This document shows positions 2,423 through 29,547 of a stretch of 64,000 nt of DNA, piece by piece. Below the pieces are notes generated by a model that was not told where the DNA came from, searched no databases, and was given only the letters and a program-made list of their open reading frames with translations. Origin of the DNA: Candidatus Kapaibacterium sp. (lineage in GTDB: Bacteria; Bacteroidota; Ignavibacteria; Kapaibacteriales; HRBIN21). The stretch is from the NCBI GenBank assembly GCA_025059875.1, contig JANXCT010000002.1, forward strand, positions 153,180-217,179, in the 5' to 3' direction. A program made the position numbers and the translations under genes. Within the stretch, counting starts at the first letter, position 1, and each line of letters opens with the position of its first letter.

Positions 2423-2483
2423 CCAAGCTCCCCGGTGGGGTTGTATTTTTGCAGCGTCTCGGTGTACTGCTCTGGGAACGCCG

Positions 2484-5207: not shown

Positions 5208-5259
5208 GCCCTTCGTTTCTGTGCTTTTCGGTACTTTGCATAGCTGAATAAAGGCGTGC

Positions 5260-6645: not shown

Positions 6646-6760
6646 CACCAACAGAAACTCCGCTACCATCGGAGTCGGACGTACGGGCCACTGTCGGTGG
6701 CTGACGGGATCCCTCTCGGCCTCATTCCGATGCACGGGCCAACAAGGTCTGTGGAGGGAG

Positions 6761-7396
6761 CTAATGGGGGAAATGCGCCCGGAAAATGGCAGCACAGCGA
6801 GCTTTAACCTCTGCCATGGGGAGCTGCTGCCCTAGCTCCCGTGCCATCGAGGTTACAGTCTTGTCCGCAATTCCGCAGGGAACGATGTAGGCAAACTCCT
6901 CCAGACGATTGTTGACGTTGAGTGCAAAACCATGCCAGCTAACCCATCGAGTGACATGGAGGCCGATGGCGCAGATCTTGCGAGCTCCATCAATCCATAC
7001 GCCCGTCAGCCCCGGGACACGATGCCCGGAAATTCCGAAGTCTGCCAACAGCTCAATGATGCACTGCTCTATCTCTCGCACGAACCAGTGGAGGTCCTCG
7101 CGGTACTCCGAAAGCCGAATGATGGGATAGCCAACGAGCTGACCAGGATTGTGGAGCGTCACATCCCCGCCGCGCTCTACTTCGTAGACTTCGACTCCAC
7201 GTTCGCGCAATAGTGGCTCAGGCAGCAAAATATGACGCCGCGATCCCGAGCGTCCAATGGTGATAACCGTGGGATGTTCGCATAGGACCAGCGTATTCCC
7301 TGCCTGCCGACTCTGCACCCGCTGAAGGAGGTCCCTCTGGCGCTGCCAAGCCTCAGCATACGGGATACAGCCCCAATCTTCCACTTGTAGCATCGC
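6761..7396 (-). CDS. lipB: Lipoyl(octanoyl) transferase
   Basis: LipB motifs (LCEHPTVITIGR, NPGQLVGYPII, catalytic Cys region CAIGL, HGFALNVN). Start set at the internal Met (MLQVEDWG); the track ORF extends to 7504. Confidence 0.8.
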   Translation of the reverse strand, partial: AMLQVEDWGCIPYAEAWQRQRDLLQRVQSRQAGNTLVLCEHPTVITIGRSGSRRHILLPEPLLRERGVEVYEVERGGDVTLHNPGQLVGYPIIRLSEYREDLHWFVREIEQCIIELLADFGISGHRVPGLTGVWIDGARKICAIGLHVTRWVSWHGFALNVNNRLEEFAYIVPCGIADKTVTSMARELGQQLPMAEVKARCAAIFRAHFPH

Positions 7397-7406
7397 GCCA
7401 CGATGC

Positions 7407-7868
7407 CTACCGTAGTGGGCTTTCAGTCCCCGTGCTGCCGAACCCACCACTTCCTCGCTCTGTCTGAGGCAATTCCTGGACAAGCTCCCATTGGACACGC
7501 TCATACCGTGTCACGACCAATTGCGCAATCCGATCTCCTCTCCGAATCCAAAACGGCTCCCGGCCAAAGTTGGCCAGTATCACACGGATTTCGCCACGGT
7601 AGTCACTGTCAATTGTGCCAGGAGCGTTTAGGACAAAGACCCCATGGCGAGCTGCGATCCCACTGCGAGGACGGACTTGGCATTCATAGCCAAGGGGGAG
7701 TGCGATGGCAATACCCGTCGGGATAACTACGATACCTCCCGGAGGGAGCTCCACTGGCTCCGTTACCGCTGCGTAGACGTCCATGCCAGCAGAACCCTCC
7801 GTTGCATAGGTCGGCAGCGGCAGGTCTGCAAAAGCGGGATCTGTGCGCTGGATCTGAACGACCAGCAT
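7407..7868 (-). CDS. dut: dUTP diphosphatase
   Basis: 153 aa with the five dUTPase motifs ([39 protein letters not shown]). Confidence 0.85.
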
Positions 7869-7876
7869 CTGCCCGC

Positions 7877-9058
7877 TCAGCTACTCGCCACCGGCTGTGG
7901 AGCAGTGTAGCCGACTTCGCGGAGTAGCTCCCGAGCAATGATGATGTGCTGGATCTCAGAGGTGCCTTCGTAGATCTCCGTGATCTTGGCGTCACGCAGG
8001 TACCGCTCCACCTTGTACTCCCGAACGTAGCCATAGCCCCCATGGATCTGGATAGCCTCCAGAGCCAGCTCTACAGCCGTTCGAGAGGCGAAGAGCTTTG
8101 CGTGAGATGCCGCCTTGATGTACCGCTCACCTTGATCCCGCAGCCATGCTGCTTTCAAGAGGAGCAGTCGGGCAGCCTCTAGCTTGACAGACATATCCGC
8201 CAGCTTCATCTGGATAGCCTGGTGCTCGCAGATAGGTTTGCCGAAGGTCTTCCGCTGCTGGGAGTACGCCAGCGCCGCTTGGAAGGCTGCCTCAGCAATC
8301 CCAACTGCTTGCGCTGCAATCCCAATTCGCCCGCCGTTGAGGGTGTTCATCGCAATCCGAAAGCCCTCGCCAATGTCCCCCAACACATTAGCGTCGGGCA
8401 CGAAGACGTTGGTGAGCCCAATGGAGCAAGTGTCGCTAGAGCGGATCCCGAGCTTGTCCTCCTTCTTACCAGGGACGAAGCCCTCGATGCCCCGCTCTAT
8501 CAGGAACGCCGTGATTCCCCGATGGCCTTTGGAGCGGTCAGTCTGGGCGAAGACAACGTAGACGTCGGCCGTAGTACCGTTGGTGATCCAATTCTTCGTG
8601 CCGTTGAGAATCCACCCACCATCGCCACGGACGGCCATCGTATGCTGACGCGTTGCATCAGAGCCAGCCTCGGGCTCGCTCAGGCAGAAGGCACCAAGCT
8701 TGCGCCCTGTGGCCAAGTCACGGAGGTAGCGCTCCTTCTGGTCTTGAGTCCCATATGTCTCGATCGGCCAGCAAGCCAGAGAGTTGTTGACCGACATGAT
8801 AACGCCAACGCTTGCATCGGCCTTGGAGATCTCCACCAGCGCCAGGACATAGCTAATGGTATCCAAGCCACTCCCGCCCCACTCAGGCGAGACCATCATT
8901 CCCATGAAGCCAAGCTCTCCCAGCTTGCGCACGATCTCGTAAGGAAACTCACCCGTAATATCTCGCTCGATGGCCGTCGGCTCTATCTCTGTCTCAGCAA
9001 ACTCCCGTGCCGTCTGCTGAATAAGCCGCTGCTCTTCTGTAAGCTCCAAGCTGAACAT
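7877..9058 (-). CDS. Acyl-CoA dehydrogenase
   Basis: ACAD N-, middle- and C-terminal domain motifs ([35 protein letters not shown]). Start chosen at MFSLEL (9058); the upstream in-frame ATG at 9115 would overlap asnB. Confidence 0.8.
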
Positions 9059-9101
9059 TTCTGCCACTGCTGCAGGGAAGACTTCAGCGCTACTTGCCAA
9101 A

Positions 9102-11075
9102 TTACGAAATCTCAACCCGGAACGCTTCCTCAGCGACCTCTACACCGTCGTGCAGCGCAGGGCTACTCCAAAGCGCCAGCCACTCAGCCAGCACCAAGCA
9201 TCCCCAGAGAAGGTGCGCATGGTTCGCTACACCCCGGCGATGCTCATCCAGAAGACGGAGCACTTCCGCTGCATTGAGGTATTCCCGATGGAGTCCAGGC
9301 TGACCAGTATACCACCACCGTAGGCGCTCCCCCAATGCTCCTGCCATCCACGAGATGAGCGGTGTCATAAACGGGGCTTTCGGCCGGTAGAGGACCTGTT
9401 TGGGCACGTATGCCTCTGCCGCCCGCTTCAGGAGGTACTTCTGCTGGAAGCCGTGGATACGGTACCGGTCGGGCAATCGAAAAGCGAACTCCACCACTTC
9501 CACATCTAGTAATGGCGGTCGCGTCTCGACAGCCACTGCCATAGAGGCCTTATCCGAGTAGAGCAAGTTGAGGCCCGTCAAGAACAGCTTGGTATCCAGG
9601 TAAGTCATCTGAGCAACTGGCGAAGCTCCGCGGACCCGTTCGGCCGTCTCCCAGTACCGGCGTATCGGATACAGCTCCGAATACGCCGGCAACGGCTGCA
9701 ACCACAGCCGGCGTAGCCGCTCTGGCGGGCAGTACGCGAAACCATAGATGAAGGCCTCTAGAGGTCGGAGCTGTATCGGGAAAAGCATCCGTGCAAACCA
9801 CCGCAGCGGGCGAATGCGTGAACGCACCCATGAGCTCGGTAGCGATCGGAGAACGGGTTCTACAAGCCCTCTCCGAAACCACTGTGGCAGCCGATGGTAG
9901 TAGGTCAGCAGTAGCGTTGCCAACTGCTTCCGGTAGCCAGCGAAGACCTCATCACCCCCCATCCCGTTGAGCAGTACGGTTGTCCCATTCGCTCTGGCAT
10001 GGTGCGCAATGAGATACGTGTTGATCGCAGCTCCGTCGGCAACGGGGTCGTCCAAGTGCCAGAGGACCTTCGGTAGCAGAGCATTGATGGCCGGGCGGAT
10101 TCGGATCTCCCGATGCCGTGTACGCAATTGCTGTGCAACGAAGCGAGCGTAGGCAGGATCGTCCGGGTGTGCCTCTATGCGATGGTCTTCAGGCGCGAAG
10201 GCGATCGTGTACGTTGCCAAGTCGGCATCGGGGACAGCACGTCGCATGAGTGCTACGACGAGCGAGGAGTCCACCCCTCCGGAGAGGAAGGCCCCGACAG
10301 GAACGTCCGCAAGCATCTGCCGAGCAACGGCTCGTTCCAAGAGGTAGCGCAAGTGCTCCACATACTCCGACTCATGGCGGTAGCGGAGCTGTCCCTCCGG
10401 TGTTGGAGTCGGCACGTCCCAGTACTGGGTGATCTCCAGCCGCCCATTACGGAAAAACGCGTACGAACCGGCTGGCAGCTTGTGGATGCCAACGAAACCG
10501 GTCTTCGGCTCAGGCACCCACAGGAGAATAAGTGTACTCACCAACGCATCCATGTCCGGCACGCACGCTACATTGGGCAGTGCACAGAGTGCCTTCGCCT
10601 CTGAAGCAAAGGCAAGCATGGAGCCCACTTGGACATAGTAGAGCGGCTTGATGCCAAGATGGTCACGGGCTAAGAAGAGCTCGCGCGTCTCCGTGTCGTA
10701 GATTCCGAAAGCGAACATCCCATTGAAGCGGCGCACACAGTCCGCCCCCCACTCATCGTATGCTGCCAGGATGACCTCTGTATCCGTTCGTGAGCGAAAG
10801 CGGTAGCCCAGCCGCTCTAGCTCAGCACGGAGTTCCCAGAAGTTGTAGATTTCTCCATTGTAGGTAATCCATCGCGTTCCGCGCCCATTGGGCATTGGCT
10901 GGTGTCCAGCAGGAGTCAGATCTAGAATCGCCAACCGGCGATGTGCTAGTCCCGAGCGATGTTCTGGGAACCATTCAACTCCCCAATCATCCGGTCCGCG
11001 ATGGCGCAGCCGTTGGAGCATCCGCTCCAAGGCCTCACGACTACCCCCATTGATGATTCCCGCGATGCCGCACAT
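9102..11075 (-). CDS. asnB: Asparagine synthase (glutamine-hydrolysing) family amidotransferase
   Basis: N-terminal MCGIAG class-II glutamine amidotransferase nucleophile; PP-loop SGGVDSS in the synthetase domain; 657 aa. Located at the edge of a glycosyltransferase cluster (AsnB paralogs often amidate sugars). Confidence 0.85.
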   Translation of the reverse strand: MCGIAGIINGGSREALERMLQRLRHRGPDDWGVEWFPEHRSGLAHRRLAILDLTPAGHQPMPNGRGTRWITYNGEIYNFWELRAELERLGYRFRSRTDTEVILAAYDEWGADCVRRFNGMFAFGIYDTETRELFLARDHLGIKPLYYVQVGSMLAFASEAKALCALPNVACVPDMDALVSTLILLWVPEPKTGFVGIHKLPAGSYAFFRNGRLEITQYWDVPTPTPEGQLRYRHESEYVEHLRYLLERAVARQMLADVPVGAFLSGGVDSSLVVALMRRAVPDADLATYTIAFAPEDHRIEAHPDDPAYARFVAQQLRTRHREIRIRPAINALLPKVLWHLDDPVADGAAINTYLIAHHARANGTTVLLNGMGGDEVFAGYRKQLATLLLTYYHRLPQWFRRGLVEPVLRSLPSSWVRSRIRPLRWFARMLFPIQLRPLEAFIYGFAYCPPERLRRLWLQPLPAYSELYPIRRYWETAERVRGASPVAQMTYLDTKLFLTGLNLLYSDKASMAVAVETRPPLLDVEVVEFAFRLPDRYRIHGFQQKYLLKRAAEAYVPKQVLYRPKAPFMTPLISWMAGALGERLRWWYTGQPGLHREYLNAAEVLRLLDEHRRGVANHAHLLWGCLVLAEWLALWSSPALHDGVEVAEEAFRVEIS

Positions 11076-11106: not shown

Positions 11107-12573
11107 TCAGGTTTTTTCAATCTCCTGATCTTCGTCGAAAATTGGCTCTGAGAGAACTCGGGACACAACGGCCTGGACTGTCCAAAAGAAGAGCCATAGG
11201 GGGAAGACTACGCGAGTTACCTCCCACCAGTTATCCACGAACCCTAGTCCAAAGAGGTAGATAGCCCCCATCAAGGTAGCGACAGCGACTGGAAGGACCT
11301 CGGACGCGTGTTCACGGGCTAGCCGAACGAGCTGGTATGAGCGACGGAGGAGGTACCCATAGAGACCGAATACCGCCACTGCTCCTAAGATGCCCACCTC
11401 CGCAAGCGGTGCCAAGTAGCTAGAGTAAGGACTGGCGAAGATGTAGGAGCCGAACACGATCTCCCGTGGGAGACTCCCTAAGTACTGCTGACTGAACTCT
11501 GTTGTCCACGGCTTAGTCATTCCGAAGAGCTGCTGGATGATCCCCCCTACCCCTTTCCCCTTCTGTTCTACAGAGCTGAACTCTACAGCGAACGTGTAGT
11601 AGGCACGACTGACGTAGTTACCTGGACCTACGCCTACGAGGAATGTCCAAGGATGATCCCAGAACATTTGGAACGTTGCCGGAAACGCTTGGAACTTAGC
11701 ATAGTGCAGGTAGTCACCTGGATTCGCTAAAACGAGCAACAGATCACCATAGCCCAAATCTCCTTGGGCAGCTCGTGAGGTATAGTCCACGAGCCGCTGC
11801 TGAGCCTGTCCTGCCAGTTCTTCCAAAGCTCGTTCAATGAGGGCAGCACTCAAAAGGAGAGCTATCACGCTCACGATCACCCCTCGCAGAACCTGTCGTC
11901 CGTAGAGGGCAACCAGAGTCGTTCCGTACGCTACTAAGAAGAACGGGAATCCTGCCCGAAACTGCAGAAGGTAGTACACTGCGAAGATGAGGACTTGCAA
12001 GGCAATAGTAACGATTCGGGATACCCCCTGCGCTTGGCTAGCCCCCAAAAGCATTCCAGCGGCTATGGCTAAGAAGAACGAGAACTGGTATGGATTGTTG
12101 CCAAACGTCCCCGAGAGCCTATCCGGATCGGCGTGGGATAGGAAGGCAGGGAAATCCAAGAACGCCACCACGAGAAGGTTGAGCACGAGGATCCCGAACA
12201 GAAGGTGCTGGAGCTCGCGAGCAAACGCAAATTCTTCTACTACCCACCGACGGAGTGCAAGGAAGAGCAGCGGTCCACCAGCGAACCCAATCGTGAACAG
12301 CAGAACGGCTGGCAGCAGCACCCTATCGGCATTTGCTAGTACCGATATCCCTACTGCCAACAGGAAGAGAAAGACAAAGCGTGCTACTCGGCGCTCATCT
12401 TCACTAGCGATCCCTCCCAGTGCCGGTCGGAAGAGGAAGCCCAGCACTACGATGCTCAGCGCTAGCGGCATATCCAACACATCAACCCACTTCGGCAGGA
12501 GTCGCAGCTTCTCCGTCAGCAGTCGGCTGACCAAGAAGAAGCCAAGTCCGAAGAGGATTACCCTCTCAACCAT
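11107..12573 (-). CDS. Polytopic membrane protein, O-antigen ligase/polymerase (Wzy/RfaL)-like
   Basis: About 10 or more predicted TM helices with a central periplasmic-loop region and a Glu/Asp-rich C-terminus. Sits within a glycosyltransferase cluster. Family assignment by architecture only. Confidence 0.45.
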   Translation of the reverse strand: MVERVILFGLGFFLVSRLLTEKLRLLPKWVDVLDMPLALSIVVLGFLFRPALGGIASEDERRVARFVFLFLLAVGISVLANADRVLLPAVLLFTIGFAGGPLLFLALRRWVVEEFAFARELQHLLFGILVLNLLVVAFLDFPAFLSHADPDRLSGTFGNNPYQFSFFLAIAAGMLLGASQAQGVSRIVTIALQVLIFAVYYLLQFRAGFPFFLVAYGTTLVALYGRQVLRGVIVSVIALLLSAALIERALEELAGQAQQRLVDYTSRAAQGDLGYGDLLLVLANPGDYLHYAKFQAFPATFQMFWDHPWTFLVGVGPGNYVSRAYYTFAVEFSSVEQKGKGVGGIIQQLFGMTKPWTTEFSQQYLGSLPREIVFGSYIFASPYSSYLAPLAEVGILGAVAVFGLYGYLLRRSYQLVRLAREHASEVLPVAVATLMGAIYLFGLGFVDNWWEVTRVVFPLWLFFWTVQAVVSRVLSEPIFDEDQEIEKT

Positions 12574-12582
12574 CTCACGAGC

Positions 12583-13767
12583 TCAAGAGCGCTCAAGGAC
12601 CCAATACAGCTCCTCCTCCCAGCGCTGAACGACGTTCTCAATTGCAAAATCCGTTGCAACTCTCTGCCGGTTTCGTGCCCCAGCTAACCGCAACCATCCC
12701 GGTTCCTGAAGAGACTGCAAGAGAGCCGACGCTAAGGCAGCTGTATCTCCCGGCGGTACAACTCTACCGTGGATCCCATCCGTCACCAATTCTGTTAAGG
12801 CACCCACTGCAGTAACGACGACAGGTAACCCTGCAGCCATCGCCTCCAGTAACGCCATCGAGAATCCCTCACTGTAGGAAGGTAGTACGAACACGTCCGC
12901 CTCAACCATAGCTTGCCTCACTGCGGAAGCGGGAAGTACCCCTGAGATGCGGATTCCATACTGTTCTTGTTGCTTTAGGTAATGGTCAATCTCGGCCTCA
13001 ATCTCGGCAGAGTGCTTGCGATAGTACTGCTGCCATTCCGGTGGCAGGAAGCTGGCAGCCACTTCAGGGTCAGCAATCCGAGTCCCGATGAGCCAGAGCT
13101 CCACAGGGACCGCGTCCCGCAACTGGCGATATGCCCTCAGGAGCTCCCGAACTCCCTTCGCGAAGGCAATATGACCAACGAAGAGTAGCCGATATGGCGG
13201 AGCTTCCGCTACTACCCTCCGGCGCCTTGGGAGGCCCTCTAACTGGACCCCATTTACGAGGACTCGAATCTGCTCTGCTGGGACCAACCCCTCAAACTGT
13301 TGCCGTAGTCCATCACTTTGGACGAATACCCCCTGCAGTTGCCTCAGCCCCCATCGGATTACTGAACGCCGCAATGGAGGCTGGAGAGCAAAGAATCCTG
13401 CAAAGTTCCCCCCTCGATACTGAGCAACTACCCTCGCCCCCCAAAGACGTGCCGTTACTATCAAGACGATATCCCGAACGATCCCTACCCAGCTGGAAGA
13501 GAGCAGGAGGAAGACCAGATGCGGACGCCACCGCCACAATGCTGTGATATATTCCCGCCATACACGCACGAACTTGGCTATTCCCTTCCAGTCAAAGCGA
13601 CCCTTCTCTGCATTACTCTCCCGTAGGGTGGTACGGACATGCATGAGGGCCAATCGCTCTGAACGCCAATGCCGCAACACCAACTCCATCCCCACCTCAG
13701 GCCCTGCATAGGGCGGTGGCGTCGGCACAGCCATTAATACCCGCTTCATTCCATCCACTGCACCCAT
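12583..13767 (-). CDS. Glycosyltransferase family 4 (GT-B)
   Basis: GT4 C-terminal signature (VLPSYSEGFSMALLEAMAAGLPVV, E-x7-E). Likely start at the internal Met (MKRVLMAV, 13749). Confidence 0.7.
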   Translation of the reverse strand: MGAVDGMKRVLMAVPTPPPYAGPEVGMELVLRHWRSERLALMHVRTTLRESNAEKGRFDWKGIAKFVRVWREYITALWRWRPHLVFLLLSSSWVGIVRDIVLIVTARLWGARVVAQYRGGNFAGFFALQPPLRRSVIRWGLRQLQGVFVQSDGLRQQFEGLVPAEQIRVLVNGVQLEGLPRRRRVVAEAPPYRLLFVGHIAFAKGVRELLRAYRQLRDAVPVELWLIGTRIADPEVAASFLPPEWQQYYRKHSAEIEAEIDHYLKQQEQYGIRISGVLPASAVRQAMVEADVFVLPSYSEGFSMALLEAMAAGLPVVVTAVGALTELVTDGIHGRVVPPGDTAALASALLQSLQEPGWLRLAGARNRQRVATDFAIENVVQRWEEELYWVLERS

Positions 13768-15455
13768 GGGAGCGAGCGCACGCGAAACTCTACCACCCCA
13801 CCCCCTTCACGTCGCACGGCGAATACAGGTATGCGACGGTGCCGACGCCAATTCCATTCTTGAGAAGGCAACGACAGGCCACTGTTCCTGAGAGCTTCAA
13901 CTTCTGCAGAGTCGCCTACACAGAAAGTAACGATTGCCCTTAGCACCTCGAGCATCCTCTCCTCAGAGTAGCCCGGTAACTTCTGCCGCAGAGCAATCTC
14001 GGCAAGATGGGGCATAGCTATCAACGGGTCCAGAATGAGACGCCCCGTGGAAGTAGGAGCCGCCAACCGCTCCAAAGCTCGCCATAGCTCTGGTCGGGAG
14101 AGCTCAAGGCGTCCGAGAGTAAATTGCAGCTCACGAGCGGTTGTCGGATACAATCGGTTCAACGCTAACGTTCCATGAAAGTCCCCTGCTATCACGACAT
14201 CCTCAGGCAGGAGCTGTGCCCGGTACCGCTTGTTGACCGCATAGATATCGTTGTCCGGCGAACGATAGAGCCATATCACCGGTGCCGTTGATACAGCAAT
14301 GGCCCCAACCGCCACACTGGCCATAACCCGACTCCCATGAGAACGCACCCCAGCAACACCGAGAGCCCCTAGAGGTATCATCCACAGCCAGAACTCGTTC
14401 GAACTAGGCTCCCAGAGGATGGCTAGGAACGCCAAACCAACTCCCCATCCGACAAGGCTCCAGTATGCCAAATGCCCCGACAGCTCCCTATGGCGCTGCC
14501 GAAAGGTCTTCAGGGCTGTCCAGATAACCACGACCGTCCCTATAAGGCCAATGCCTCCTAAGAGCACAGCAGCCTCTACGGGAAGACTACGCAAAAGGAA
14601 GCGCTCATCCAGGAAGAGCTTCATACTCCATCGCTGCTGCACGTACTCCCAAATATCCCCTACCCGCAGAAAGTACTCCGGAAACGTCCACGCCCGCATG
14701 ATGCCTACGGCAGCATATACGGGCGTCAGAGGCTGGAGGTGATCGTACGGCGTAAACTGCATGTGTAGTGCGTATCCCAGGACAAAGCTGACGATATCTC
14801 GGTACTCACTCTGCAGCCAGAAAGCCACCAGATAGGATACCCCGATGAGGACACTGCTGAGGCATAAGAGAGCTGCTGCCGGCTTTGGTCTTCGGGCAGC
14901 GAGGAGCAAGAGACTTGCAATAACAGCAAAAAGGGCATAGCTCTGATGGAAGAGTGCCGCAGTCCACACGCACACCGCTGCTCCCACAATCCAGCCCCAT
15001 TGCCGGGACTGCTGGGCTCTTTCCACCATCATTGCCGAAGTTAGCACCATCGCAATTCCGGGGACATAGAAGTCCGGAACGACACTGTAAGCCCAGAAAC
15101 CATAGCTGGCGGCCATCGTTAGCATTGCAGCAGCGATTGCCCACGTACCCTTCCACCACAGCCAGGCCAAATACCCAACGCAGAGTATCCCTACAAGGCT
15201 GAAGGCCCCAACGATAAAGCGAACGAACGAGAGCGTCTGCCGAAACTCCAGAGGCCCCGTCCAACCGAGAGCGGCGTTCACCTTTCCAAGGAAGCCTACA
15301 ATGAGGTGGTGGGGGTGGGACATCCCCTCGTGGATCCGCACCACGAATGGGAGGGCATCATCGGCATAGAGGAAGTTCCAGCTCTGGCTGATGGCTACTA
15401 CCAACAGCCAAAGCACGGCGACGCCCCCGAGAAGGAGCTTAGGCTGCCTTCCCAT
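13746..15455 (-). CDS. Large polytopic membrane protein (GT-C-like / polysaccharide-associated, hypothetical)
   Basis: 569 aa, many TM segments in the N-terminal two thirds and a soluble C-terminal domain. Sits between two GT4 genes. No specific motif recognised. Confidence 0.45.
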   Translation of the reverse strand: MGRQPKLLLGGVAVLWLLVVAISQSWNFLYADDALPFVVRIHEGMSHPHHLIVGFLGKVNAALGWTGPLEFRQTLSFVRFIVGAFSLVGILCVGYLAWLWWKGTWAIAAAMLTMAASYGFWAYSVVPDFYVPGIAMVLTSAMMVERAQQSRQWGWIVGAAVCVWTAALFHQSYALFAVIASLLLLAARRPKPAAALLCLSSVLIGVSYLVAFWLQSEYRDIVSFVLGYALHMQFTPYDHLQPLTPVYAAVGIMRAWTFPEYFLRVGDIWEYVQQRWSMKLFLDERFLLRSLPVEAAVLLGGIGLIGTVVVIWTALKTFRQRHRELSGHLAYWSLVGWGVGLAFLAILWEPSSNEFWLWMIPLGALGVAGVRSHGSRVMASVAVGAIAVSTAPVIWLYRSPDNDIYAVNKRYRAQLLPEDVVIAGDFHGTLALNRLYPTTARELQFTLGRLELSRPELWRALERLAAPTSTGRLILDPLIAMPHLAEIALRQKLPGYSEERMLEVLRAIVTFCVGDSAEVEALRNSGLSLPSQEWNWRRHRRIPVFAVRREGGGVVEFRVRSLPWVQWME

Positions 15456-21177: not shown

Positions 21178-23394
21178 TTAGAACTCGCGGTAGAACTCAC
21201 TCCGCCGGTCTACGATAGCAGCCCGATCCCGAACAGCGTTGTACCAGTAGTAGTACGCTGACGCCTTCGCAGTATTGTACAGCCGTCGGTAGAGTTCTGC
21301 AAACTGCTTCGTCTCCAACTGCTTTGGATCGGCTTCTTGGCGCTGAGTAACTCGGATGAGGAAGTATGCCCGCTCTCCTCGAATCGGTGGCGGGATGGTA
21401 CCAATAGGCACGCGGTAGATCATAGCCGTTACGATAGGATCGCTGCCATACCCCTGAAGGAAACCGTTTTCCTTAACCCCCGTTGCTGTCTGAACTTGGG
21501 CGCTGGGATCAATCTCCACAATCCTGGCCAGAATGTCGGCATTTTTGAGGCGCTCATAGATGCTGTCCACCCGAACCTTCAGAGCATTCAGCTTCTTTAT
21601 GCGACGGACCCGTTCTTCTATCTCTGCCCGAACGTCTGCCAATGGCTTGTAGCCTGGCTTTCGCTCATCCACAATCTGCGCGACGACGACACCATATGGC
21701 TTTAGCTCCATCGGGTCAGAGAGGCGCCCAACGGGGTTGTTGAAGGCGAATTCCGTCAATGCCCGGGAGCCGAGTACAGGAGTGGTAGCCTCAAAGAAGG
21801 CTGTCTCCACAGGGTTCCGCTTAAGCCGTCGAGCCAACGTGTCGAAGGGCACACCCTTCTCTACCTGCTGTTTGAAGCTGTAAGCCTCCCGAAAGACCTG
21901 GTTGCGGCTCGCAGTACTGAGTCCTACGGTGAACTCGATCTCGCTATAGGCGATCCGATCTGAAGACTTTGCATGGACTGCGATGATGTGGAACCCAAAC
22001 GGACTTTCAACGGGCCCCACAATGCTACCAGGCTGGGCAGCGAAAGCAGCATCTTCGAAAGGCTTGACCATCCGTCCCCGCGGGAACCATCCTAGGTCGC
22101 CTCCTCTCTCGGCCGTCCCCCGGTCTTGAGAGTACAGTCGCGCCAACTGCGCGAAGTCCTCCCCTGCCTTAGCCCGCTGTAGAATCTTCTGAGCCTCAGC
22201 GCGAGCACTATCCTTGTTCGTCCCAAAATTGATGAGGATATGGCTTGCATGGACAACCACAGTATCCCCCGGCTCCCTCCGATCAACCCGGAAGAAGTAG
22301 AACTTACCCATGAGTTCCACGGGACCAATCACTGCCCCAACGGGCTGCGTTGCCAAGTGGGAAGCCTTCTGGAGGTCTATGGCTGCAAGGGAGCTGAGAC
22401 CGTAGCTTCGGCCTTGGTGCTCAGCCATCAGCAAGGAGAAGACCGAGTCCCGCTGGGCTGCTGGAGCCCGTTCCAGTTCTGACCGGACCCGTTCCAAACG
22501 GCGCCGCAAATTTGCCGTGTCTTGGGCTGTCGGCTCCAGTGGGAAGATAACGTACTTGAGCTTACGAGCTGGCTTCTTCTGCCGGAAAGCCTCTTGGTGC
22601 TGGCGATAGTAGGCTTCGATGTCGGCATCGGTTATCGAAATCTCCTTGTCCGGAATGCGATCGATCGGGTATGCAACATAGGTAACATCGGCAGAGCTGT
22701 TCTCTACGACATATTGGCGTCTTGCATAGCTCGGAGAGACTATGCTGCCAACGAGATTGACAAGGGAGCGCATGTGCTCCCGTGTACGGCTATGGCGGAT
22801 GAAGTCCTCAATCCGGAGCAGATCCCTCTTCCATCGCTCCACCGCCTCCAGCGGATCAACACCGCTATTCGGATCAATGTACTCAGCCAACCGCTCTGGC
22901 TGAGTAACCAGCTCTATGTACCGGTCACGATGGAAAGTACCCGCGGAATCCGTAAACGGCTGCCGTATGTACTCCGGCGGGTTATCCAGCAAGATGTCCC
23001 ACAACTCTCCCCGAGTCACAGGAAAGCCAACCTTGGCCGCTTCCTGGCGCAGTAGGATCTCCTCTACGACAATGTCCCAGATGCTCTGCCGGATTCCAGC
23101 CTCGTCAATGGCAACTTCGTCCCCTGCAGCTCGGCGCTGCTGCTCTATCTGCTGCTGGACGCGTTCGTTGAAGTCTGCATACCGGATGTCCTCTCCGTTG
23201 ACTTCACCAACAGCCGCCGTCGCCAGGTTTCCGCGAAGATGGAGGACATTTTGCAGATCGGCGTCCGTCGCCACCATGAATGCAATGAATACGACGGCAA
23301 ACAACGCCAGGAGGTACGGCGAGACCTCTCGCATTCGTGAAATGACGCCCATGAAAGCCCGCTGTGTAGTCAAGAAACCTTCCAGGGCTTGCAA
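21178..23394 (-). CDS. ppiD: Periplasmic chaperone / peptidyl-prolyl cis-trans isomerase (PpiD/SurA-like)
   Basis: N-terminal membrane anchor ([15 protein letters not shown]), SurA-N-like chaperone region, parvulin rotamase motif (HASHILINF...GGDLGWF...FGFHII). Start may be the internal Met at 23352. Stop codon abuts the tRNA-Arg(TCT). Confidence 0.7.
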
Positions 23395-23472
23395 AGTTAC
23401 GAAGGACCCATCGGACGCATGCCAACTACTACACTAACCGCAGGTTGAGAGCTGTGTACTTCCGGTGGGTTG

Positions 23473-23480
23473 TATCTTTG
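23473..23480 (+). promoter_or_regulatory. Candidate Bacteroidota-type -7 promoter element (TATCTTTG) upstream of trpB2
   Basis: Exact TAnnTTTG match 46 nt upstream of the trpB2 ATG, in the divergent intergenic region with ppiD. Confidence 0.2.
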
Positions 23481-23525: not shown

Positions 23526-24902
23526 ATGCGAACGAAGTTTATCCTGGATGAGAGCCAATTACCACGAGCATGGTACAACATCCTGGTGGATCTCCCGGAC
23601 CCCCTCCCTCCGCCACTCCATCCTGTGACCCTACAGCCTCTACGGCCCGAAGATATGGCTCCACTCTTCCCAGAAGACCTCATTCTCCAGGAAGCTGCAG
23701 CAGGCCCATATGCAACCCGCTTCGTGGACATCCCGGAACCTGTATTAGAAGCCTATCGCCTCTGGCGTCCTACACCGCTCTATCGCGCCCGCAGACTAGA
23801 GAAGCTCCTGTCCACACCCGCGGAGATTTACTACAAGTTCGAAGGGGTCTCTCCGACAGGCTCGCACAAGCCCAATACTGCAATTGCCCAAGCCTTCTAC
23901 AACAAACAGGCAGGGATCCGGCGCCTAACGACAGAAACGGGTGCAGGACAATGGGGTAGCGCCCTAGCCTTTGCATGCCACTACTTCGGACTAGAGTGCA
24001 AGGTCTACATGGTTAGCGTCTCCTATCACCAGAAGCCCTACCGCCGCGTGCTCATGGAGCTCTATCGAGCCACAGTCGTTCCCTCACCATCTGCAGATAC
24101 GAGTGTAGGCCGGCGCTATCTTGAAGAAGACCCGAACCATCCCGGCTCCCTTGGGATTGCCATCAGTGAGGCTGTAGAAGATGCCCTCCAACGTGAGGAC
24201 ACCCATTATTCCCTTGGCTCGGTACTCAACCACGTACTGCTCCACCAAACCATTATCGGTGAGGAGGCACTGCGCCAGATGGAGCTCGTCGGAGCATATC
24301 CCGACATCGTCGTCGGATGCGTTGGAGGTGGTTCCAACTTCAGCGGATTAGCCCTCCCCTTTGTGCGAGAGAAGCTCCTCGATGGACGCTCGACACGCAT
24401 CATCGCCGTTGAGCCGACCGCTGCTCCATCACTCACCAAAGGCATCTACACTTACGACTTCGGCGATACGGCTCGCATCGTACCGCTACTCAAGATGCAT
24501 ACGCTCGGCTCCTCATACGTGCCACCTCCTATTCATGCAGGCGGTCTACGCTACCATGGAATGGCACCCATCGTCTCGTACCTCTACCACAAAGGGCTCA
24601 TCGAAGCCGTTGCTGTCCCTCAGCGAAAGGCATTTGAAGCAGGTGTCCTCTTTGCCCAAGCCGAGGGAATTGTGCCAGCACCAGAAGCAAGCCATGCGAT
24701 AAGAGTTGTGATTGATGAAGCGCTCCGCTGCCGAGAAGAAGGGGTGAAAAGGGTGATCCTCTTCAACCTCTGCGGCCATGGCCACTTTGATTTAGCTGGC
24801 TACCAGCGCTTCCTTACCGGGGAGCTGGAGGACTACGAATACTCGAAGGAGCTCATCGAGCGTGCTATTGCAGAGCTCCCAACAGTGCCCGAGCCTCTGT
24901 AA
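23526..24902 (+). CDS. trpB2: TrpB-like PLP-dependent enzyme (tryptophan synthase beta chain, TrpB2 type)
   Basis: TrpB2-type N-terminal extension; PLP lysine region ([18 protein letters not shown]); [11 protein letters not shown] glycine loop; ~458 aa, longer than TrpB1. No trpA adjacent. Confidence 0.8.
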
Positions 24903-24926
24903 CTGGGCACCATCCCTTCTCAAACA

Positions 24927-25751
24927 ATGACTCCGGACTCTATCCGGCTGCAGATCGTAGCCATACAGCAGCTCGTCCTCCACGAGGAGACTGAGCCTGG
25001 ACGAGTTGCTCAACTCCAATCCCAACTCCAGCAGAGCGGCATTCTTCGCAATCCCCCAATTGCTGCACCCTTAGAGGAAGGGACCTTCATCGTGCTTGAC
25101 GGAGCAACACGGATCACAGCGCTGCGACAGCTGGGGATTCCTGCAGTTCCTGTCCAACTGGTTGACTACCCTGGACCTCAGGTCCAGGTCCGAACGTGGT
25201 GTCACTTCCTGCCAGGCTGGACATTGCCGCTCTTCCAACGAGTAGCTACTCAAGCAGGGTTTACGACGCTGCTTTCCCAATGGCCACAAGCACAAGAACT
25301 CCTTGCAGACCACACAGCCGTCGCGTGTGCGTTTGACCAAAACGGTGAAGCACTTGTGCTTCCTCCGGCGTCTCTTTGCCCCTCGCTCTGCTCAGCACTG
25401 CAAGCCCTGGTACGGGGCTACTCCCATCCTTACCCCTTCCAGCGCGTGGCGTGGGAAGAAATCCAGGAGCTCGTACAGCATGGAATCTATCAAGACGGCA
25501 TCTACGTTGCATTTGCTCCTTTTACCCCAGAAGAGATCCGTGCCTTAGCCCTCCGGGGAGAGCTACTCCCAGCCGGGGTGACACGCCACACGATTGCTGG
25601 TCGCCTCCTCCGTGCAAATATCCCGTTGATGCTACTCCAGTCAGGACCAGCAGAGGCAAAAAACCAGCTTTTCCAGCGCTGGTGGCACAACCGTCTGCGC
25701 ACCCACCGCTTACGCTACTATCCCGAACCCACGTTTGTCTTCGACGACTGA
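24927..25751 (+). CDS. ParB/Sulfiredoxin-fold domain protein (candidate SerK-like kinase; function unproven)
   Basis: N-terminal ParB-N-like segment (IRLQIVAIQQLVLHEE...FIVLDGATRITALRQLGIPAVPV). 274 aa with no HTH or DNA-binding region recognisable. Co-directional and 24 nt after trpB2. Confidence 0.55.
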   Translation: MTPDSIRLQIVAIQQLVLHEETEPGRVAQLQSQLQQSGILRNPPIAAPLEEGTFIVLDGATRITALRQLGIPAVPVQLVDYPGPQVQVRTWCHFLPGWTLPLFQRVATQAGFTTLLSQWPQAQELLADHTAVACAFDQNGEALVLPPASLCPSLCSALQALVRGYSHPYPFQRVAWEEIQELVQHGIYQDGIYVAFAPFTPEEIRALALRGELLPAGVTRHTIAGRLLRANIPLMLLQSGPAEAKNQLFQRWWHNRLRTHRLRYYPEPTFVFDD

Positions 25752-25768
25752 GCAAGGCCCACGGAGCC

Positions 25769-26653
25769 ATGCTACAGATTGGGCGCTTCCAGATAGACGT
25801 CGTAGAAACCGGCCGTTTCGGCCTGGACGGTGGAGCGATGTTCGGGGTTGTTCCCAAACCTCTGTGGGAAAAGGCCTACCACCCTGCCGATCCGATGAAC
25901 CGCATCCCAATGGCAGCTAGGGCATTGCTGATTCGGTGGGACAGTCATGCTGTACTCGTTGATACCGGTAACGGCTCCAAGATGTCCGAGAAACAGCGGC
26001 AGATCTATGCGATTGACTCTTCCCAGTACTCCCTAGAACGCTCACTCTCTTACCTTGGGCTCTCGCCAGAAGATATTACCGCCGTGATTCTCACCCATCT
26101 CCACTTCGACCACGCTGGTGGCAGCACCTACTACTCTCCAACTGGCGAATTACTTCCAACCTTCCCTAAAGCTCGCTACTATGTCCAACGCGATCACTTG
26201 CTTGCGGCACGGCACCCTACAGAAAAGGATCGTGCCTCCTTCATCCCAGAAGACTTTGAACCACTGGCATCCCTTGGACTGCTAGAACTTCTCGAGGGCG
26301 AAGGAGAGCTCTTCCCCGGCATCTATCTCCTCCTCACCCATGGTCACACCCGCGCGATGCAGCTCGTGCTTGTCAGCGATGAAGGGCGGCATCTCCTCTA
26401 CTGCGCAGACCTCTGCCCGACAGCAGCCCATATTCCCTACCCCTACATCATGGCATACGACAACTTCCCCCTGACAACGCTGGAAGAGAAAAAGCGCATA
26501 CTACCTAGAGCCTACGAAGAGGGCTGGATCCTCTGCTTTGAGCACGACGCCTTCGTTCAAGCTGGCCGCCTGCAGGTAACCCCAAAAGGATTTGCACTCG
26601 CCGAGCCTCTCACGATCACGACCTACGACCCGCTCCCACCTCAAGTGGGGTAA
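25769..26653 (+). CDS. MBL-fold metallo-hydrolase
   Basis: HxHxDH motif (THLHFDHAGG), downstream His/Asp ligands (LTHGHT, CADL). Start at MLQIGRF inside the longer track ORF 25376-26653. 17 nt after the ParB-like gene. Confidence 0.7.
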   Translation: MLQIGRFQIDVVETGRFGLDGGAMFGVVPKPLWEKAYHPADPMNRIPMAARALLIRWDSHAVLVDTGNGSKMSEKQRQIYAIDSSQYSLERSLSYLGLSPEDITAVILTHLHFDHAGGSTYYSPTGELLPTFPKARYYVQRDHLLAARHPTEKDRASFIPEDFEPLASLGLLELLEGEGELFPGIYLLLTHGHTRAMQLVLVSDEGRHLLYCADLCPTAAHIPYPYIMAYDNFPLTTLEEKKRILPRAYEEGWILCFEHDAFVQAGRLQVTPKGFALAEPLTITTYDPLPPQVG

Positions 26654-27215
26654 GGACCCGATCGGGGAACTGCTCGATGAACTCCCGCCATGTTCGGGGC
26701 CGTTGTGAGTCGACTCGGTAGCGGCGAAAGACATGGCAAAGTGCTACTGCCAAGGCGTCGGAGACATCATAGAAGCGTGATTGCTCCACTTTCTGCCCTG
26801 TGTCTTCGTCACTAAGCAGACGGTACACCATGTAGTGCACCTGCCCCTTTGCTGCATTCCCACGTCCAGTAATTGCCTGCTTGACTTCGCTAGGAGTATA
26901 CTCGATGACTGGGATTCGTGCTAACCCCAGGCTCAGAAGTACAACGCCGCGAGCTTGAGCCAATTTCACTAGCGCTTGAGCATTCCGAGCATAAAAGCTA
27001 CTTTCTACAGCCGCCTCATCTGGCTTCGTTTTGTGGAGAATTGATTGAAGTTGTTCGAAAATAAGGCTCAACTTTGCTGAAAGTCCTTCTGCTTGCTCCG
27101 TTGCTATAACGCCCTGCTCCACTATCCATATCCGTCCATCTTGCCAACCGATAACGCCATAGCCACATCGGATGCTGCCTGGGTCAATTCCAATGATCCG
27201 CAACGGCCTACGCAT
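26616..27215 (-). CDS. ruvC: Crossover junction endodeoxyribonuclease RuvC
   Basis: IIGIDPGS...GYGVI N-terminus, RNase H-like fold residues, conserved ...KQA..G.G.A.K.QV. Start at MRRPLRIIGID (internal to the track ORF). Downstream of yebC as in many bacteria. Confidence 0.8.
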   Translation of the reverse strand: MRRPLRIIGIDPGSIRCGYGVIGWQDGRIWIVEQGVIATEQAEGLSAKLSLIFEQLQSILHKTKPDEAAVESSFYARNAQALVKLAQARGVVLLSLGLARIPVIEYTPSEVKQAITGRGNAAKGQVHYMVYRLLSDEDTGQKVEQSRFYDVSDALAVALCHVFRRYRVDSQRPRTWREFIEQFPDRVLTPLEVGAGRRS

Positions 27216-28013: not shown

Positions 28014-29219
28014 CTACGTCCGTGCAGCTTCCTCTGTCCCAAATAGGCATCCCGACGACCCTGCCCATGGCATATCGTTGTATCGGACTCCCATCATTGC
28101 TGCTCGACCTGTGCGTGCCAGGGACATAACGGGCAGCGGTTGTTCCCACTCAGGGAGCCACACCAGCATAACCCGTAGCTCCACAGTGTTCATGCCCACT
28201 GGAGTGTAGATGCATGGAGCGTAGGCAATCCGTTCCTGGAGGAGATACAGCCTCCGCGCCTCCTCCGAGAGGGATCGGACATGGTCCAGCGTGGGATTCA
28301 GGACAACACCCTTGCCAGCAAAAGAGAATAGCGGCTTAAGCACGTAGTTTTCCACGTCTTCGGGAATACCGTCCGACAAGCGCAAAGAGTACGGCACTAA
28401 GGGATGGCGGAGGTAAGGTAGCGTGAACTTGCTCATGCGGAAATACCAGTTCGGATGCCCTGCCCATTCCACTGCTAGATCGTCGGTCCATCGGAAAGGA
28501 AGCTGAACGCCGTACTCCTGGAGCTCGTCGACCACTACCCGGTTGAAGATACGCCGAACCGGTACCCACTGCCCGTTGCGCCGGCGGTAAAGGTAACGGC
28601 CGCGCTTGCGAAGGCTACAGATATCCACAGCCTCTATGCCCAACTGGCACTGCAGCGCCGTGAAATCGGGACGGGTCTTCTGCTCTTCCGGACGATAGTC
28701 AACCAGTACCACCTCCTCCGGGGCGTGATCGCCAAGGATGGCCCGGCGAAGGATGTCCCAATACGCCTCATCGGAGAGGTTGCTGAGGGTGTAGCCCCAG
28801 TGCTCCCCCAACCGGTACACCTCGCGAGCAAGGCGAGCATAGAAGTACTGGTAGCCGAAGAGAGACGGGAAGCCCTGGATCTCCACCACTCGTAGCCCCA
28901 ATCTCTCCTCGCCTTCTTGTACAACAGCGAAGTCCACAACGGCGAAGAGCGGCCGTTCGGGCTCGTTCGGAACTCGATACTCCGGCGGAATGGCCTCTTC
29001 AGACAGCCGGCGATACGCCTCTGCGGTGCACTGAACTGTTATCTCCCGAGCAGCTTGCTCTAGCTGGTATTGAAAGTCACGAGAAACAAAGATCGGAGCC
29101 TCGCAGACTCGGAACTCAATTCGAGAACCCACAGCCTCCTCCAGCCTCTTCCGAAACTGAGCGTACCGCTCCGGCGTGTAGTGCTGCTCAACGAAGCGTC
29201 GCTGCATCTGAGGTAACAT
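28014..29219 (-). CDS. Hypothetical protein (possibly ATP-grasp-like ligase family)
   Basis: 401-aa ORF with consistent codon usage, co-directional after metG and the small membrane protein. No definitive motif recognised. Confidence 0.4.
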   Translation of the reverse strand: MLPQMQRRFVEQHYTPERYAQFRKRLEEAVGSRIEFRVCEAPIFVSRDFQYQLEQAAREITVQCTAEAYRRLSEEAIPPEYRVPNEPERPLFAVVDFAVVQEGEERLGLRVVEIQGFPSLFGYQYFYARLAREVYRLGEHWGYTLSNLSDEAYWDILRRAILGDHAPEEVVLVDYRPEEQKTRPDFTALQCQLGIEAVDICSLRKRGRYLYRRRNGQWVPVRRIFNRVVVDELQEYGVQLPFRWTDDLAVEWAGHPNWYFRMSKFTLPYLRHPLVPYSLRLSDGIPEDVENYVLKPLFSFAGKGVVLNPTLDHVRSLSEEARRLYLLQERIAYAPCIYTPVGMNTVELRVMLVWLPEWEQPLPVMSLARTGRAAMMGVRYNDMPWAGSSGCLFGTEEAART

Positions 29220-29223
29220 CTGC

Positions 29224-29547
29224 CTAAGGACCTAGCTGTTCTCTCGTAGAGGGGAGATACCGCGGGGGCACTGTGGGAAGTTGGAAACCATAACGCTCAG
29301 CAGCAGGGACTACACGCTCTGGCATCTCCATCCGGATGAGCTGCTGGTGGTAGAACAATGCCACTGACTCCAGCGAGTCGCAGACACGCTGGAGGCGCTG
29401 GATTTGCCGGATGCGTTCTTCAATGGCAACGACGTTGTGGACGTAGGCTACCAGCAGTACGTTGCTCCCAAGAATGAGAGCTATCAGCAAGAGATACCGT
29501 AGCCGCTGCCGCTGGCGATGGAATCCTGGCAATGTCTGTTGGCTCAT
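29224..29547 (-). CDS. Small single-pass membrane protein (FtsL/septum-formation-initiator-like, hypothetical)
   Basis: 107 aa: basic N-terminus, one TM helix (YLLLIALILGSNVLLVAYV), then a coiled-coil-like segment. ATGA overlap with the metG stop. Confidence 0.35.
   Translation of the reverse strand: MSQQTLPGFHRQRQRLRYLLLIALILGSNVLLVAYVHNVVAIEERIRQIQRLQRVCDSLESVALFYHQQLIRMEMPERVVPAAERYGFQLPTVPPRYLPSTREQLGP

Follow-up and report, generated by a model that had tools for sequence, protein, structure and literature searches.

A block of three co-directional genes at positions 23526–26653 (plus strand) of a 64,000-nt stretch of Candidatus Kapaibacterium sp. DNA (GCA_025059875.1, contig JANXCT010000002.1; the whole stretch is referred to below as the window) encodes a predicted tryptophan synthase β-like enzyme of the TrpB2 type, which depends on pyridoxal phosphate (PLP), a protein of the ParB/sulfiredoxin (Srx) fold, which we term S, and a hydrolase of the metallo-β-lactamase (MBL) fold. 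The reading that we favour, with moderate confidence, is that S is a serine kinase making O-phospho-L-serine (OPS) and that TrpB2 joins OPS and indole to form tryptophan, the two genes constituting a module placed upstream of an older gene. This reading is built on gene structure, family and fold assignments, conserved residues, gene clustering and gene fusions. TrpB2 enzymes occur in many archaea, bacteria and plants and prefer OPS in vitro; their physiological role and the source of OPS are still debated. Free serine kinases have so far been described, to our knowledge, in Thermococcales/Desulfurococcales and in the sbn operon of staphylococci.

The first gene (23526..24902, ATG at 23526) encodes the TrpB2-type enzyme of 458 aa, predicted to use OPS. 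It is followed after 24 nt by the gene for S (24927..25751, ATG start, 274 aa), a two-domain protein of the SerK/SbnI type and a predicted free L-serine kinase, and after a further 17 nt by the gene for the MBL-fold protein (25769..26653, ATG start, 294 aa; Pfam Lactamase_B), a lactonase-like di-metal hydrolase. The same three gene calls are present in the public assembly of a Kapabacteria/Chlorobiota metagenome-assembled genome (MAG; GCA_033581675.1, contig JAVQST010000002.1). An earlier interpretation made from the DNA letters alone (the sequence-only reading) had described three co-directional open reading frames (ORFs) with these positions and spacers, and this layout was confirmed. Its family assignments held as well, that of TrpB2 by NCBIfam models, that of the SerK/SbnI-like ParB/Srx fold by profiles and fold, and that of the MBL protein by an intact HxHxDH motif.

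For S, Pfam yielded no match at all, neither to ParBc nor to a helix-turn-helix (HTH) family, and the assignment therefore needed NCBIfam, sequence and profile searches of the PDB, and a fold search. S matched the NCBIfam SbnI model NF033589 over its full length (E = 1e-29, 103.7 bits, below the cut-off of 350) and the SerK model NF053625 with E = 1.4e-10 (40.8 bits, below the cut-off of 380). With scores below both equivalog cut-offs, S belongs to a separate, uncharacterised bacterial clade and is a homologue, not an equivalog, of the two kinases. A profile of 33 S homologues retrieved SbnI (5e-36) and SerK (4e-14) from the PDB. The AlphaFold2 model of S, built on the homologue alignment, reached a pLDDT (predicted local distance difference test) of 93, and Foldseek found full-length matches for it only to SbnI and SerK, with 236–266 aligned columns and target-normalised template modelling (TM) scores of 0.74–0.83. 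ParB, Noc, KorB and Srx matched S over the N-terminal domain only (~80 residues, query-normalised TM ~0.25). As modelled, S combines an N-terminal ParB/Srx-like nucleotide-binding domain with the C-terminal domain of the family and no HTH; the HTH and C-terminal dimerisation domain of DNA-binding ParB, KorB and Noc proteins were not found in it. The sequence-only reading had kept in view that S might align with HTH-bearing, DNA-binding ParB/KorB, which was not the case, S having no HTH and matching SerK and SbnI. Its premise that no free serine kinase other than SerK has been characterised is outdated, since SbnI of Staphylococcus has been characterised too and is closer to S. Full-length similarity in both sequence and fold to these two characterised free serine kinases alone supports the identification of S as a kinase, and we infer that its activity and substrate are those of the SerK/SbnI-type free L-serine kinases.

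The residues H19, E20, P43, D58, G59, R62, W91 and R220 of S are invariant in 84 aligned sequences, SerK and SbnI included. E20, D58, G59 and R62 correspond to E30, D69, G70 and R73 of SerK, and E20, D58 and R62 to the residues of the same number in SbnI. PDB titles show E30 of SerK to be the residue that was mutated for the E30A and E30Q crystal structures. The sequence-only reading had proposed a check of the SerK active-site residues; E20, D58 and R62 proved to be invariant in the S family. The catalytic residues are likewise invariant among the loci of the window and of L172, L173, L083, L085 and L087, despite the fast divergence of S between them.

The TrpB2 protein passed two NCBIfam TrpB2 models, NF009057 with 724.5 bits (cut-off 366) and TIGR01415 with 649.7 bits (cut-off 518.85), whereas it remained with 157.9 bits below the cut-off of 392.45 for the TrpB1 model TIGR00263; a grouping with TrpB1, which would have spoken against the sequence-only reading, was therefore not observed. 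Its best PDB matches are the Sulfolobus solfataricus TrpB2 chains 6hul_B, 4qys_B and 6hte_B, which match over the full length with E = 7.6e-137 to 4.6e-120. The PLP-binding lysine is K115. R342, located in the motif GGLRYHG, aligns with the same Arg in 4qys, 6hul and 6hte and with the Asp of 'AGLDYPG' in two TrpB1 structures. This is the position at which TrpB1 carries the Asp that contacts the serine hydroxyl, and the identity of the residue there, Arg or Asp, reportedly determines the preference for OPS or serine. That TrpB2 enzymes use OPS is the conclusion of Busch et al. 2014 as cited in PMC11917138, and for other TrpB2 enzymes OPS is established as the substrate of higher catalytic efficiency in comparison with L-serine. 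The TrpB2 of the window is likewise predicted to use OPS, and the genomic context described below, with S beside it and an aminotransferase and a phosphoglycerate dehydrogenase (PGDH) beside some of its relatives, supports this prediction.

A scan of GTDB with one genome per species returned at least 582 confirmed relatives of S, and the best 80 loci were analysed. These loci derive from Kapabacteria, Ignavibacteria, Chloroflexota, Armatimonadota, Eisenbacteria, Latescibacterota and a few Proteobacteria MAGs. Neighbouring genes were typed by tblastn and ORF clustering on simple longest-ORF gene calls, representatives being checked against Pfam and NCBIfam. A fold-type-II PLP β-replacement enzyme was located within 3 kb of S in 28 of the 80 loci, nearly always adjacent and co-directional, although the raw counts overstate the number of independent events since many loci come from related MAGs. 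Directly adjoining S were enzymes like cystathionine β-synthase (CBS; 14 loci), CysM-like enzymes (13 loci) and TrpB2 (6–7 loci), and the representative of the CBS-like neighbours scored above the cut-off of TIGR01137. Companions of the cysteine-type clusters were cystathionine γ-synthase/lyase, a MoeZ-like ThiF-rhodanese protein, cysteine desulfurase and a CymR-like Rrf2 regulator. An arrangement of cystathionine γ-synthase/lyase, CBS-like enzyme, S, CysM-like enzyme and CymR-like Rrf2 regulator was seen in Armatimonadota-like and related MAGs (L005, L016, L028, L052, L056, L061, L062), and in many Anaerolineae the CBS-like gene lies directly 5' of S. Such clusters suggest that transsulfuration or cysteine synthesis depends on OPS in the bacteria concerned. 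In Chloroflexia (L033 at 6928–9852, L059, L078), S is immediately followed by SerC, scoring above the TIGR01364 cut-off, and then by a short PGDH-like SerA.

An HMMER search of 1.84 billion representatives yielded 529 members of the S family at E <= 1e-30 and 1402 at E <= 1e-10. Among the predicted proteins, fusions of a PGDH(SerA)-like dehydrogenase to S make up at least five representative clusters (P0284, P0348, P0354, P0369, P0376), and one fusion of a JAB/desampylase domain to S was found (P0293). The S-SerC-SerA order and the SerA-S fusions connect S with the phosphorylated serine pathway, whether run for catabolism or for biosynthesis. All these neighbours and fusion partners handle serine, phosphoserine or products of serine β-replacement, and among the indirect evidence for serine phosphorylation by S this is the strongest. 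Members of the family are at present annotated as 'ParB N-terminal domain-containing protein' or 'hypothetical'; the JGI name of one of them (P0075) is 'L-serine kinase (ATP) / ParB family regulator'. As some pipelines already label members in this way, the homology itself is not new.

TrpB2 lies directly 5' of S in the window, in L172 and in Chloroflexota (L020, L031, L039, L043, L047, L079), and directly 3' of S in a Comamonadaceae MAG (L075) and on a metagenome contig (L125). This adjacency occupies at least five separate places in the tree of S and in that of TrpB2 alike, and the scattered positions indicate that it was assembled repeatedly. A genome holds a few thousand genes, one or two of them TrpB2, and chance alone would then be expected to yield well below one adjacent case in 80 loci. 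The conservation of the gene trio, on which the sequence-only reading had depended, was found in part: the TrpB2–S pair occurs independently in Chloroflexota, the Comamonadaceae MAG and the metagenome contig, but the complete trio recurred in only one other Kapabacteria contig (L172), four other close relatives being without it.

In Chloroflexota/Anaerolineae (L031 at 1910–11000, L039, L043, L079), the pair is part of a larger cluster with the order hydantoinase A, hydantoinase B, V4R-domain protein, TrpB2, S, IorA and IorB, followed by the FAD, 2Fe-2S and Mo subunits of an enzyme of the xanthine dehydrogenase family. In the Comamonadaceae MAG (L075), IorA is encoded on the opposite strand, followed by S and TrpB2. 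The hydantoinase-TrpB2-S-IorAB cluster may serve indole/tryptophan catabolism or the assimilation of aryl acids (indole to tryptophan to indolepyruvate to indoleacetyl-CoA), and we take it to resemble the cluster for anaerobic indoleacetate degradation (iaa).

The neighbourhoods of the relatives of TrpB2 also bear on its function. They include trpS and trpE, among others in the trpS-linked loci L089, L090 and L092, which are sister to the TrpB2 of the window, and some relatives are located at the end of trpD-C-F-B1-A operons. On four metagenome contigs (L096, L098, L117, L140), genes for a class-V aminotransferase and for a full-length PGDH, the latter scoring above the TIGR01327 cut-off, come after TrpB2. 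Such an aminotransferase and PGDH are the enzymes that make OPS from 3-phosphoglycerate. These loci lend independent genomic support to a use of OPS by this TrpB2 clade. From the trp-gene and OPS-making neighbours we concluded that the clade belongs to tryptophan metabolism and has repeatedly been clustered with some source of OPS. The alternative in the sequence-only reading, synthesis of a non-canonical β-substituted amino acid, is weakened by the position of the nearest TrpB2 relatives beside trpS/trpE or in trp operons.

In the proposed mechanism, S would phosphorylate the hydroxyl of L-serine at the expense of a nucleotide and thereby form OPS, with E20 as the presumptive catalytic base. 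The ParB/Srx-type domain would hold the nucleotide, the donor being ATP, as for SbnI, or ADP, as for SerK. TrpB2 would bind OPS on the PLP at K115 with R342 holding the phosphate, eliminate phosphate to leave an aminoacrylate, and add indole to yield L-tryptophan. The module would most likely serve the salvage of free indole, or of indole leaking from a TrpA encoded elsewhere, with serine as the C3 donor. Within the window, no homologues of trpA, trpB1, trpC/D/E, trpS, serA, serC or cysK/M were found, and queries with trp, serA/serC, CBS/CysM-like and iorA sequences returned no further homologue. The absence of trpA, stated in the sequence-only reading, was thus borne out for these 64 kb, and the locus does not have the adjacent trpA and other trp genes of a canonical TrpA-TrpB operon. 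With no trpA nearby, indole salvage is the most likely role.

The core idea of the sequence-only reading, a SerK-like kinase feeding an OPS-dependent TrpB2, was supported by all in-silico tests run. Several points weigh against a dedicated kinase–TrpB2 module. S is far below both equivalog cut-offs and only ~25% identical to SbnI, so its substrate could differ; it also evolves faster than its neighbours, with 46–53% as opposed to 77–91% identity between Kapabacteria loci. SbnI itself is, besides a kinase, a heme-responsive regulator that binds DNA and heme (PMC7139808). The survey of trp and ser genes covers the 64-kb window, and the trees of S and TrpB2 are rough neighbour-joining trees on BLOSUM distances. 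In the reverse test, S was nearby in only one (L125) of the 80 closest metagenomic relatives of the TrpB2 of the window. Most TrpB2 enzymes evidently obtain OPS in another way, presumably via SerA/SerC. Finally, the kinase activity and substrate of S, the use of OPS by TrpB2, their coupling, the co-transcription and the physiological role are all inferred from genomic observations. The idea that TrpB2 generally travels with S was rejected on the count of one in 80.

The history of the locus was examined in six Kapabacteria loci that share a frame of NFACT-ppiD on one side and ruvC-yebC-...-metG on the other. In the window, the upstream limit of the block is ppiD, a divergent SurA-like rotamase gene (21178..23352, minus strand; gene call and Pfam families), and the downstream limit is the convergent ruvC (26616..27215, minus strand; gene call and Pfam RuvC). 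Between ppiD and ruvC, four of the six loci (HR21, L085, L087/L088, L173) carry S-MBL without TrpB2, and two (the window, L172) carry TrpB2-S-MBL. The window and L172 are 87% identical in TrpB2, 82% in PpiD, 80% in MBL and 52% in S, a divergence which indicates that the trio persisted across a split at species level or deeper. TrpB2 was either acquired by some of the Kapabacteria or lost from the others. Ignavibacteria at a greater distance have S-MBL-Rieske beside ppiD, and Bacteroidota-like genomes have MBL-Rieske-QueG, with or without an adjoining ppiD and without S. Across the window, L172, L173, L083, L085 and L087, identities were 46–53% for S, 77–82% for PpiD, 78–82% for MBL, 85–91% for YebC and 87% for TrpB2.

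The most serious of the other explanations we regard as unlikely. S would be a general supplier of OPS, for instance for the synthesis of cysteine by an OPS sulfhydrylase encoded elsewhere, or a serine-catabolic enzyme (serine to OPS to 3-phosphoglycerate via SerC/SerA), and TrpB2 a neutral insertion at a permissive site near ppiD, its position beside S having no dedicated function. In Kapabacteria and Ignavibacteria, S-MBL stands more often without TrpB2 than with it, and as four of the six Kapabacteria loci lack TrpB2 the role of S needs no adjacent TrpB2. The same ppiD-proximal site had taken up S earlier, relatives in the Fibrobacteres-Chlorobi-Bacteroidetes (FCB) group having MBL beside ppiD without S; most other phyla link S to cysteine or serine genes and not to TrpB2, and the single S among 80 TrpB2 relatives points the same way. 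On the other hand, the TrpB2–S adjacency arose independently at least five times in different phyla, always co-directional and close. In two lineages with PpiD 82% identical, TrpB2 is placed between the sole intergenic region and S, at a spacer of 24–28 nt, which indicates that the arrangement has been retained. TrpB2 is also biochemically a user of OPS, according to Busch et al. 2014 as cited in PMC11917138.

A pathway of all three genes, in which the substrate of the MBL enzyme would be a precursor or product (for example a lactone or ester that is opened to free the kinase substrate, or a by-product that is hydrolysed), appears improbable. The gap between S and MBL, −4 to 63 nt in nine Ignavibacteria/Kapabacteria loci and 17 nt here, suggests co-transcription, and the MBL protein is of the lactonase type: it matched the NCBIfam YtnP-family lactonase model NF047919 over its full length with 200.9 bits (below the cut-off of 425) and PDB 3esh, an uncharacterised S. 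aureus hydrolase, at 1.8e-38, and its HxHxDH motif is intact (HLHFDH from residue 110). However, the MBL family comprises at least 7988 matches at E <= 1e-20, and close homologues with 55–62% identity across phyla occur by thousands without S; those in Bacteroidota-like genomes occupy the same ppiD-proximal place and are followed by Rieske and QueG. Outside the Ignavibacteria/Kapabacteria lineage, no MBL adjoins S among the best 80 S loci, nor does any adjoin TrpB2 in the 80 metagenome loci. The sequence-only reading had suggested that a product or precursor could be processed by MBL; this found no support, close homologues of the enzyme standing next to ppiD in other FCB-group bacteria where S and TrpB2 are missing, and membership of MBL in the pathway was rejected on its synteny history. 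A route from homoserine lactone to homoserine and on to a kinase was also considered for S-MBL and dropped, all other contexts of S pointing to serine and OPS. In two contigs (L169 at 4001–6196, L171 at 4001–6410), close homologues of the window's MBL (57–58% identity) precede genes for a small Rieske protein and for the epoxyqueuosine reductase QueG; in L169, the three genes adjoin ppiD without S. MBL-Rieske(-QueG) looks like a conserved unit of the FCB group. In the simplest reading of the order of insertion, MBL would be the old resident beside ppiD, S would have been inserted upstream of it in the Ignavibacteria/Kapabacteria lineage, and TrpB2 would have arrived later upstream of S. MBL is thus probably co-transcribed with the pathway genes but probably a bystander with a separate function.

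That S runs in reverse or replaces SerB, and so removes OPS instead of supplying it, is more doubtful still. S-SerC-SerA clusters and SerA-S fusions do exist, and a comparable idea has been put forward for the unrelated DUF1015 'SerBK' family (bioRxiv 10.1101/2024.10.14.618325), but the same source describes the reverse reaction as thermodynamically unfavourable, both characterised relatives (SbnI, SerK) act as kinases, and the position of S beside OPS-consuming enzymes (TrpB2, CysM-like) fits supply better. Least probable of all is that S acts mainly as a DNA- or ligand-binding regulator, as in the second role of SbnI, which binds DNA and heme (PMC7139808), or as a ParB-like nuclease/NTPase controlling the operon, for while the ParB/Srx fold is versatile and one archaeal SerK-like protein bound CTP (PMC12704722), S has no HTH, resembles ParB/Noc/KorB over only ~80 N-terminal residues, retains its catalytic Glu/Asp/Arg set across 84 sequences, and is fused to metabolic enzymes in a manner hard to square with a pure regulator.

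A single promoter 5' of TrpB2 probably drives all three genes, a reading based on the 24- and 17-nt spacers and on the lack of any promoter or terminator match inside the block. The scan found neither a sigma-70-type promoter nor an intrinsic terminator on the plus strand inside the block; for an organism of the FCB group, an empty sigma-70 scan is the expected outcome. A candidate Bacteroidota-type -7 box, TATCTTTG, is located at 23473..23480 (plus strand), 45 nt 5' of the ATG of TrpB2, and matches the pattern TANNTTTG exactly. The sequence-only reading had proposed such a box, and it is indeed present, but the window shows no enrichment of the pattern (15 occurrences, as opposed to 10.7 +/- 3.3 expected from shuffles) and a box of the TATCTTTG type is not conserved in the ppiD–S spacers of relatives, as judged from aligned ppiD-proximal intergenic regions. 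As the pattern is not enriched, TATCTTTG alone is a lead and not promoter evidence. In an intergenic alignment that addressed whether TrpB2 was inserted behind an older promoter, the only conserved element was the -7 box of ppiD itself, TAACTTTG (23392-23399, minus strand), which is conserved in relatives. A scan with Rfam upstream of and inside the block gave no match, and hence no T-box, Trp leader or riboswitch. At the downstream end, the 3' ends of MBL (plus strand) and ruvC (minus strand) are convergent and overlap by 38 nt (26616-26653); the gene calls of relatives show the same pattern.

Elsewhere in the window, conserved ORFs without a Pfam family are located at 28014-29219, 29224-29547, 11107-12573 and 13746-15455, all on the minus strand; among them, the pair of 401 and 107 aa between yebC and metG has the same position in all Kapabacteria relatives examined. 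The region 60-6645 encodes an AtuA-family protein, a Rieske protein, a protein with an ethylbenzene-dehydrogenase-like domain and homogentisate 1,2-dioxygenase. These genes may function in aromatic or terpenoid catabolism and have no evident link to TrpB2-S.

Published work places free serine kinases (SerK) in Thermococcales and Desulfurococcales and states that there are no clear bacterial homologues (PMC5120207), and in a survey of the ParB-CTPase fold from 2025, SerK and SbnI figure as sporadic examples only (PMC12704722). Among the papers covered by our literature search, we found none in which TrpB2 occurs together with 'serine kinase', and no description, among work on serine kinases, of this bacterial clade or of a link to TrpB2; a GapMind preprint of 2026 discusses serine kinases only for the unrelated DUF1015 family. 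What appears to be new is therefore the coupling to TrpB2 and, more broadly, a bacterial clade of serine kinases serving several OPS-related enzymes. The coupling is predictable from known biochemistry, apparently unreported, and directly testable. A serine kinase gene directly 3' of TrpB2, recurring independently in several phyla, would give a testable answer to the question of where some organisms obtain OPS (from serine via OPS to tryptophan, indole being the co-substrate). A broader reading, which we hold to be less likely than not, is that the S clade consists of widespread bacterial serine kinases, that phosphorylation and not O-acetylation activates serine for TrpB2, CysM-like and, unexpectedly, CBS-like PLP enzymes, and that the Chloroflexota cluster serves anaerobic indole assimilation or degradation. 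If this broader proposal were true, it would supply a physiological rationale for the OPS preference of TrpB2. It would also widen the bacterial use of phosphoserine as activated serine, the S family being associated with genes for cysteine, serine and tryptophan in Chloroflexota, Armatimonadota, Eisenbacteria, Ignavibacteria and others, and would improve pathway-gap annotation of proteins now named ParB N-terminal or hypothetical.

Among known systems, the closest to S is SbnI of S. aureus and S. pseudintermedius, an ATP-dependent kinase of the staphyloferrin B operon (PDB 5UJD, 5UJE, 6NR6). The two share the full-length two-domain fold of a ParB/Srx N-terminal domain and a C-terminal domain (target-normalised TM 0.81–0.83), and S retains E20, D58 and R62 as well as the motifs W-x-H and T-R. 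Each has an OPS-using PLP enzyme of fold type II beside it, SbnA next to SbnI and, by prediction, TrpB2 next to S, and the context of the S family generalises the pattern of the SbnI-SbnA pair. However, S is only ~25% identical to SbnI, lacks a siderophore context, and differs in its partner and product, predicted to be tryptophan here in place of diaminopropionate. The archaeal, ADP-dependent SerK of Thermococcus kodakarensis (TK0378; PDB 5X0B etc.) also has the same fold (target-normalised TM 0.74–0.82) and shares with S the catalytic Glu (E30 = E20), Asp (D69 = D58) and Arg (R73 = R62) and the T-R-H motif. SerK feeds OPS to PLP β-replacement enzymes or to SerC/SerA (PMC5120207), as is predicted for S. 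In contrast, identity is only ~19–20%, SerK is reported to be confined to Thermococcales and Desulfurococcales (PMC5120207), and the C-terminal R-x-Y-x-E extension that S and SbnI have in common is missing from SerK.

The partner enzyme resembles Sulfolobus TrpB2 in its strong full-length matches, in passing the curated TrpB2 cut-offs and in the conserved Arg of GGLRYHG, but it is bacterial (Kapabacteria), stands without trpA, and is directly coupled to the gene of a predicted serine kinase. The MBL protein shares its fold, the HxHxDH motif and its best family match with YtnP/AiiA-type lactonases and PDB 3ESH; its score stays well below the family cut-off (200.9 against 425), and the neighbours of its homologues are Rieske and QueG genes, not quorum-sensing genes. 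Finally, the activation of serine by phosphorylation for a PLP-dependent β-replacement follows the same logic as OPS-dependent cysteine synthesis by CysM/CysO/Mec of Mycobacterium tuberculosis and by the archaeal OPS sulfhydrylase. Many S homologues are found in clusters of cystathionine γ-synthase (CGS), CBS, S, CysM and Rrf2 or of CysM and MoeZ, or are fused to a JAB/Mec-like domain, although the window is without cysteine-synthesis genes and the CBS- and CysM-like neighbours are presumed to use OPS.

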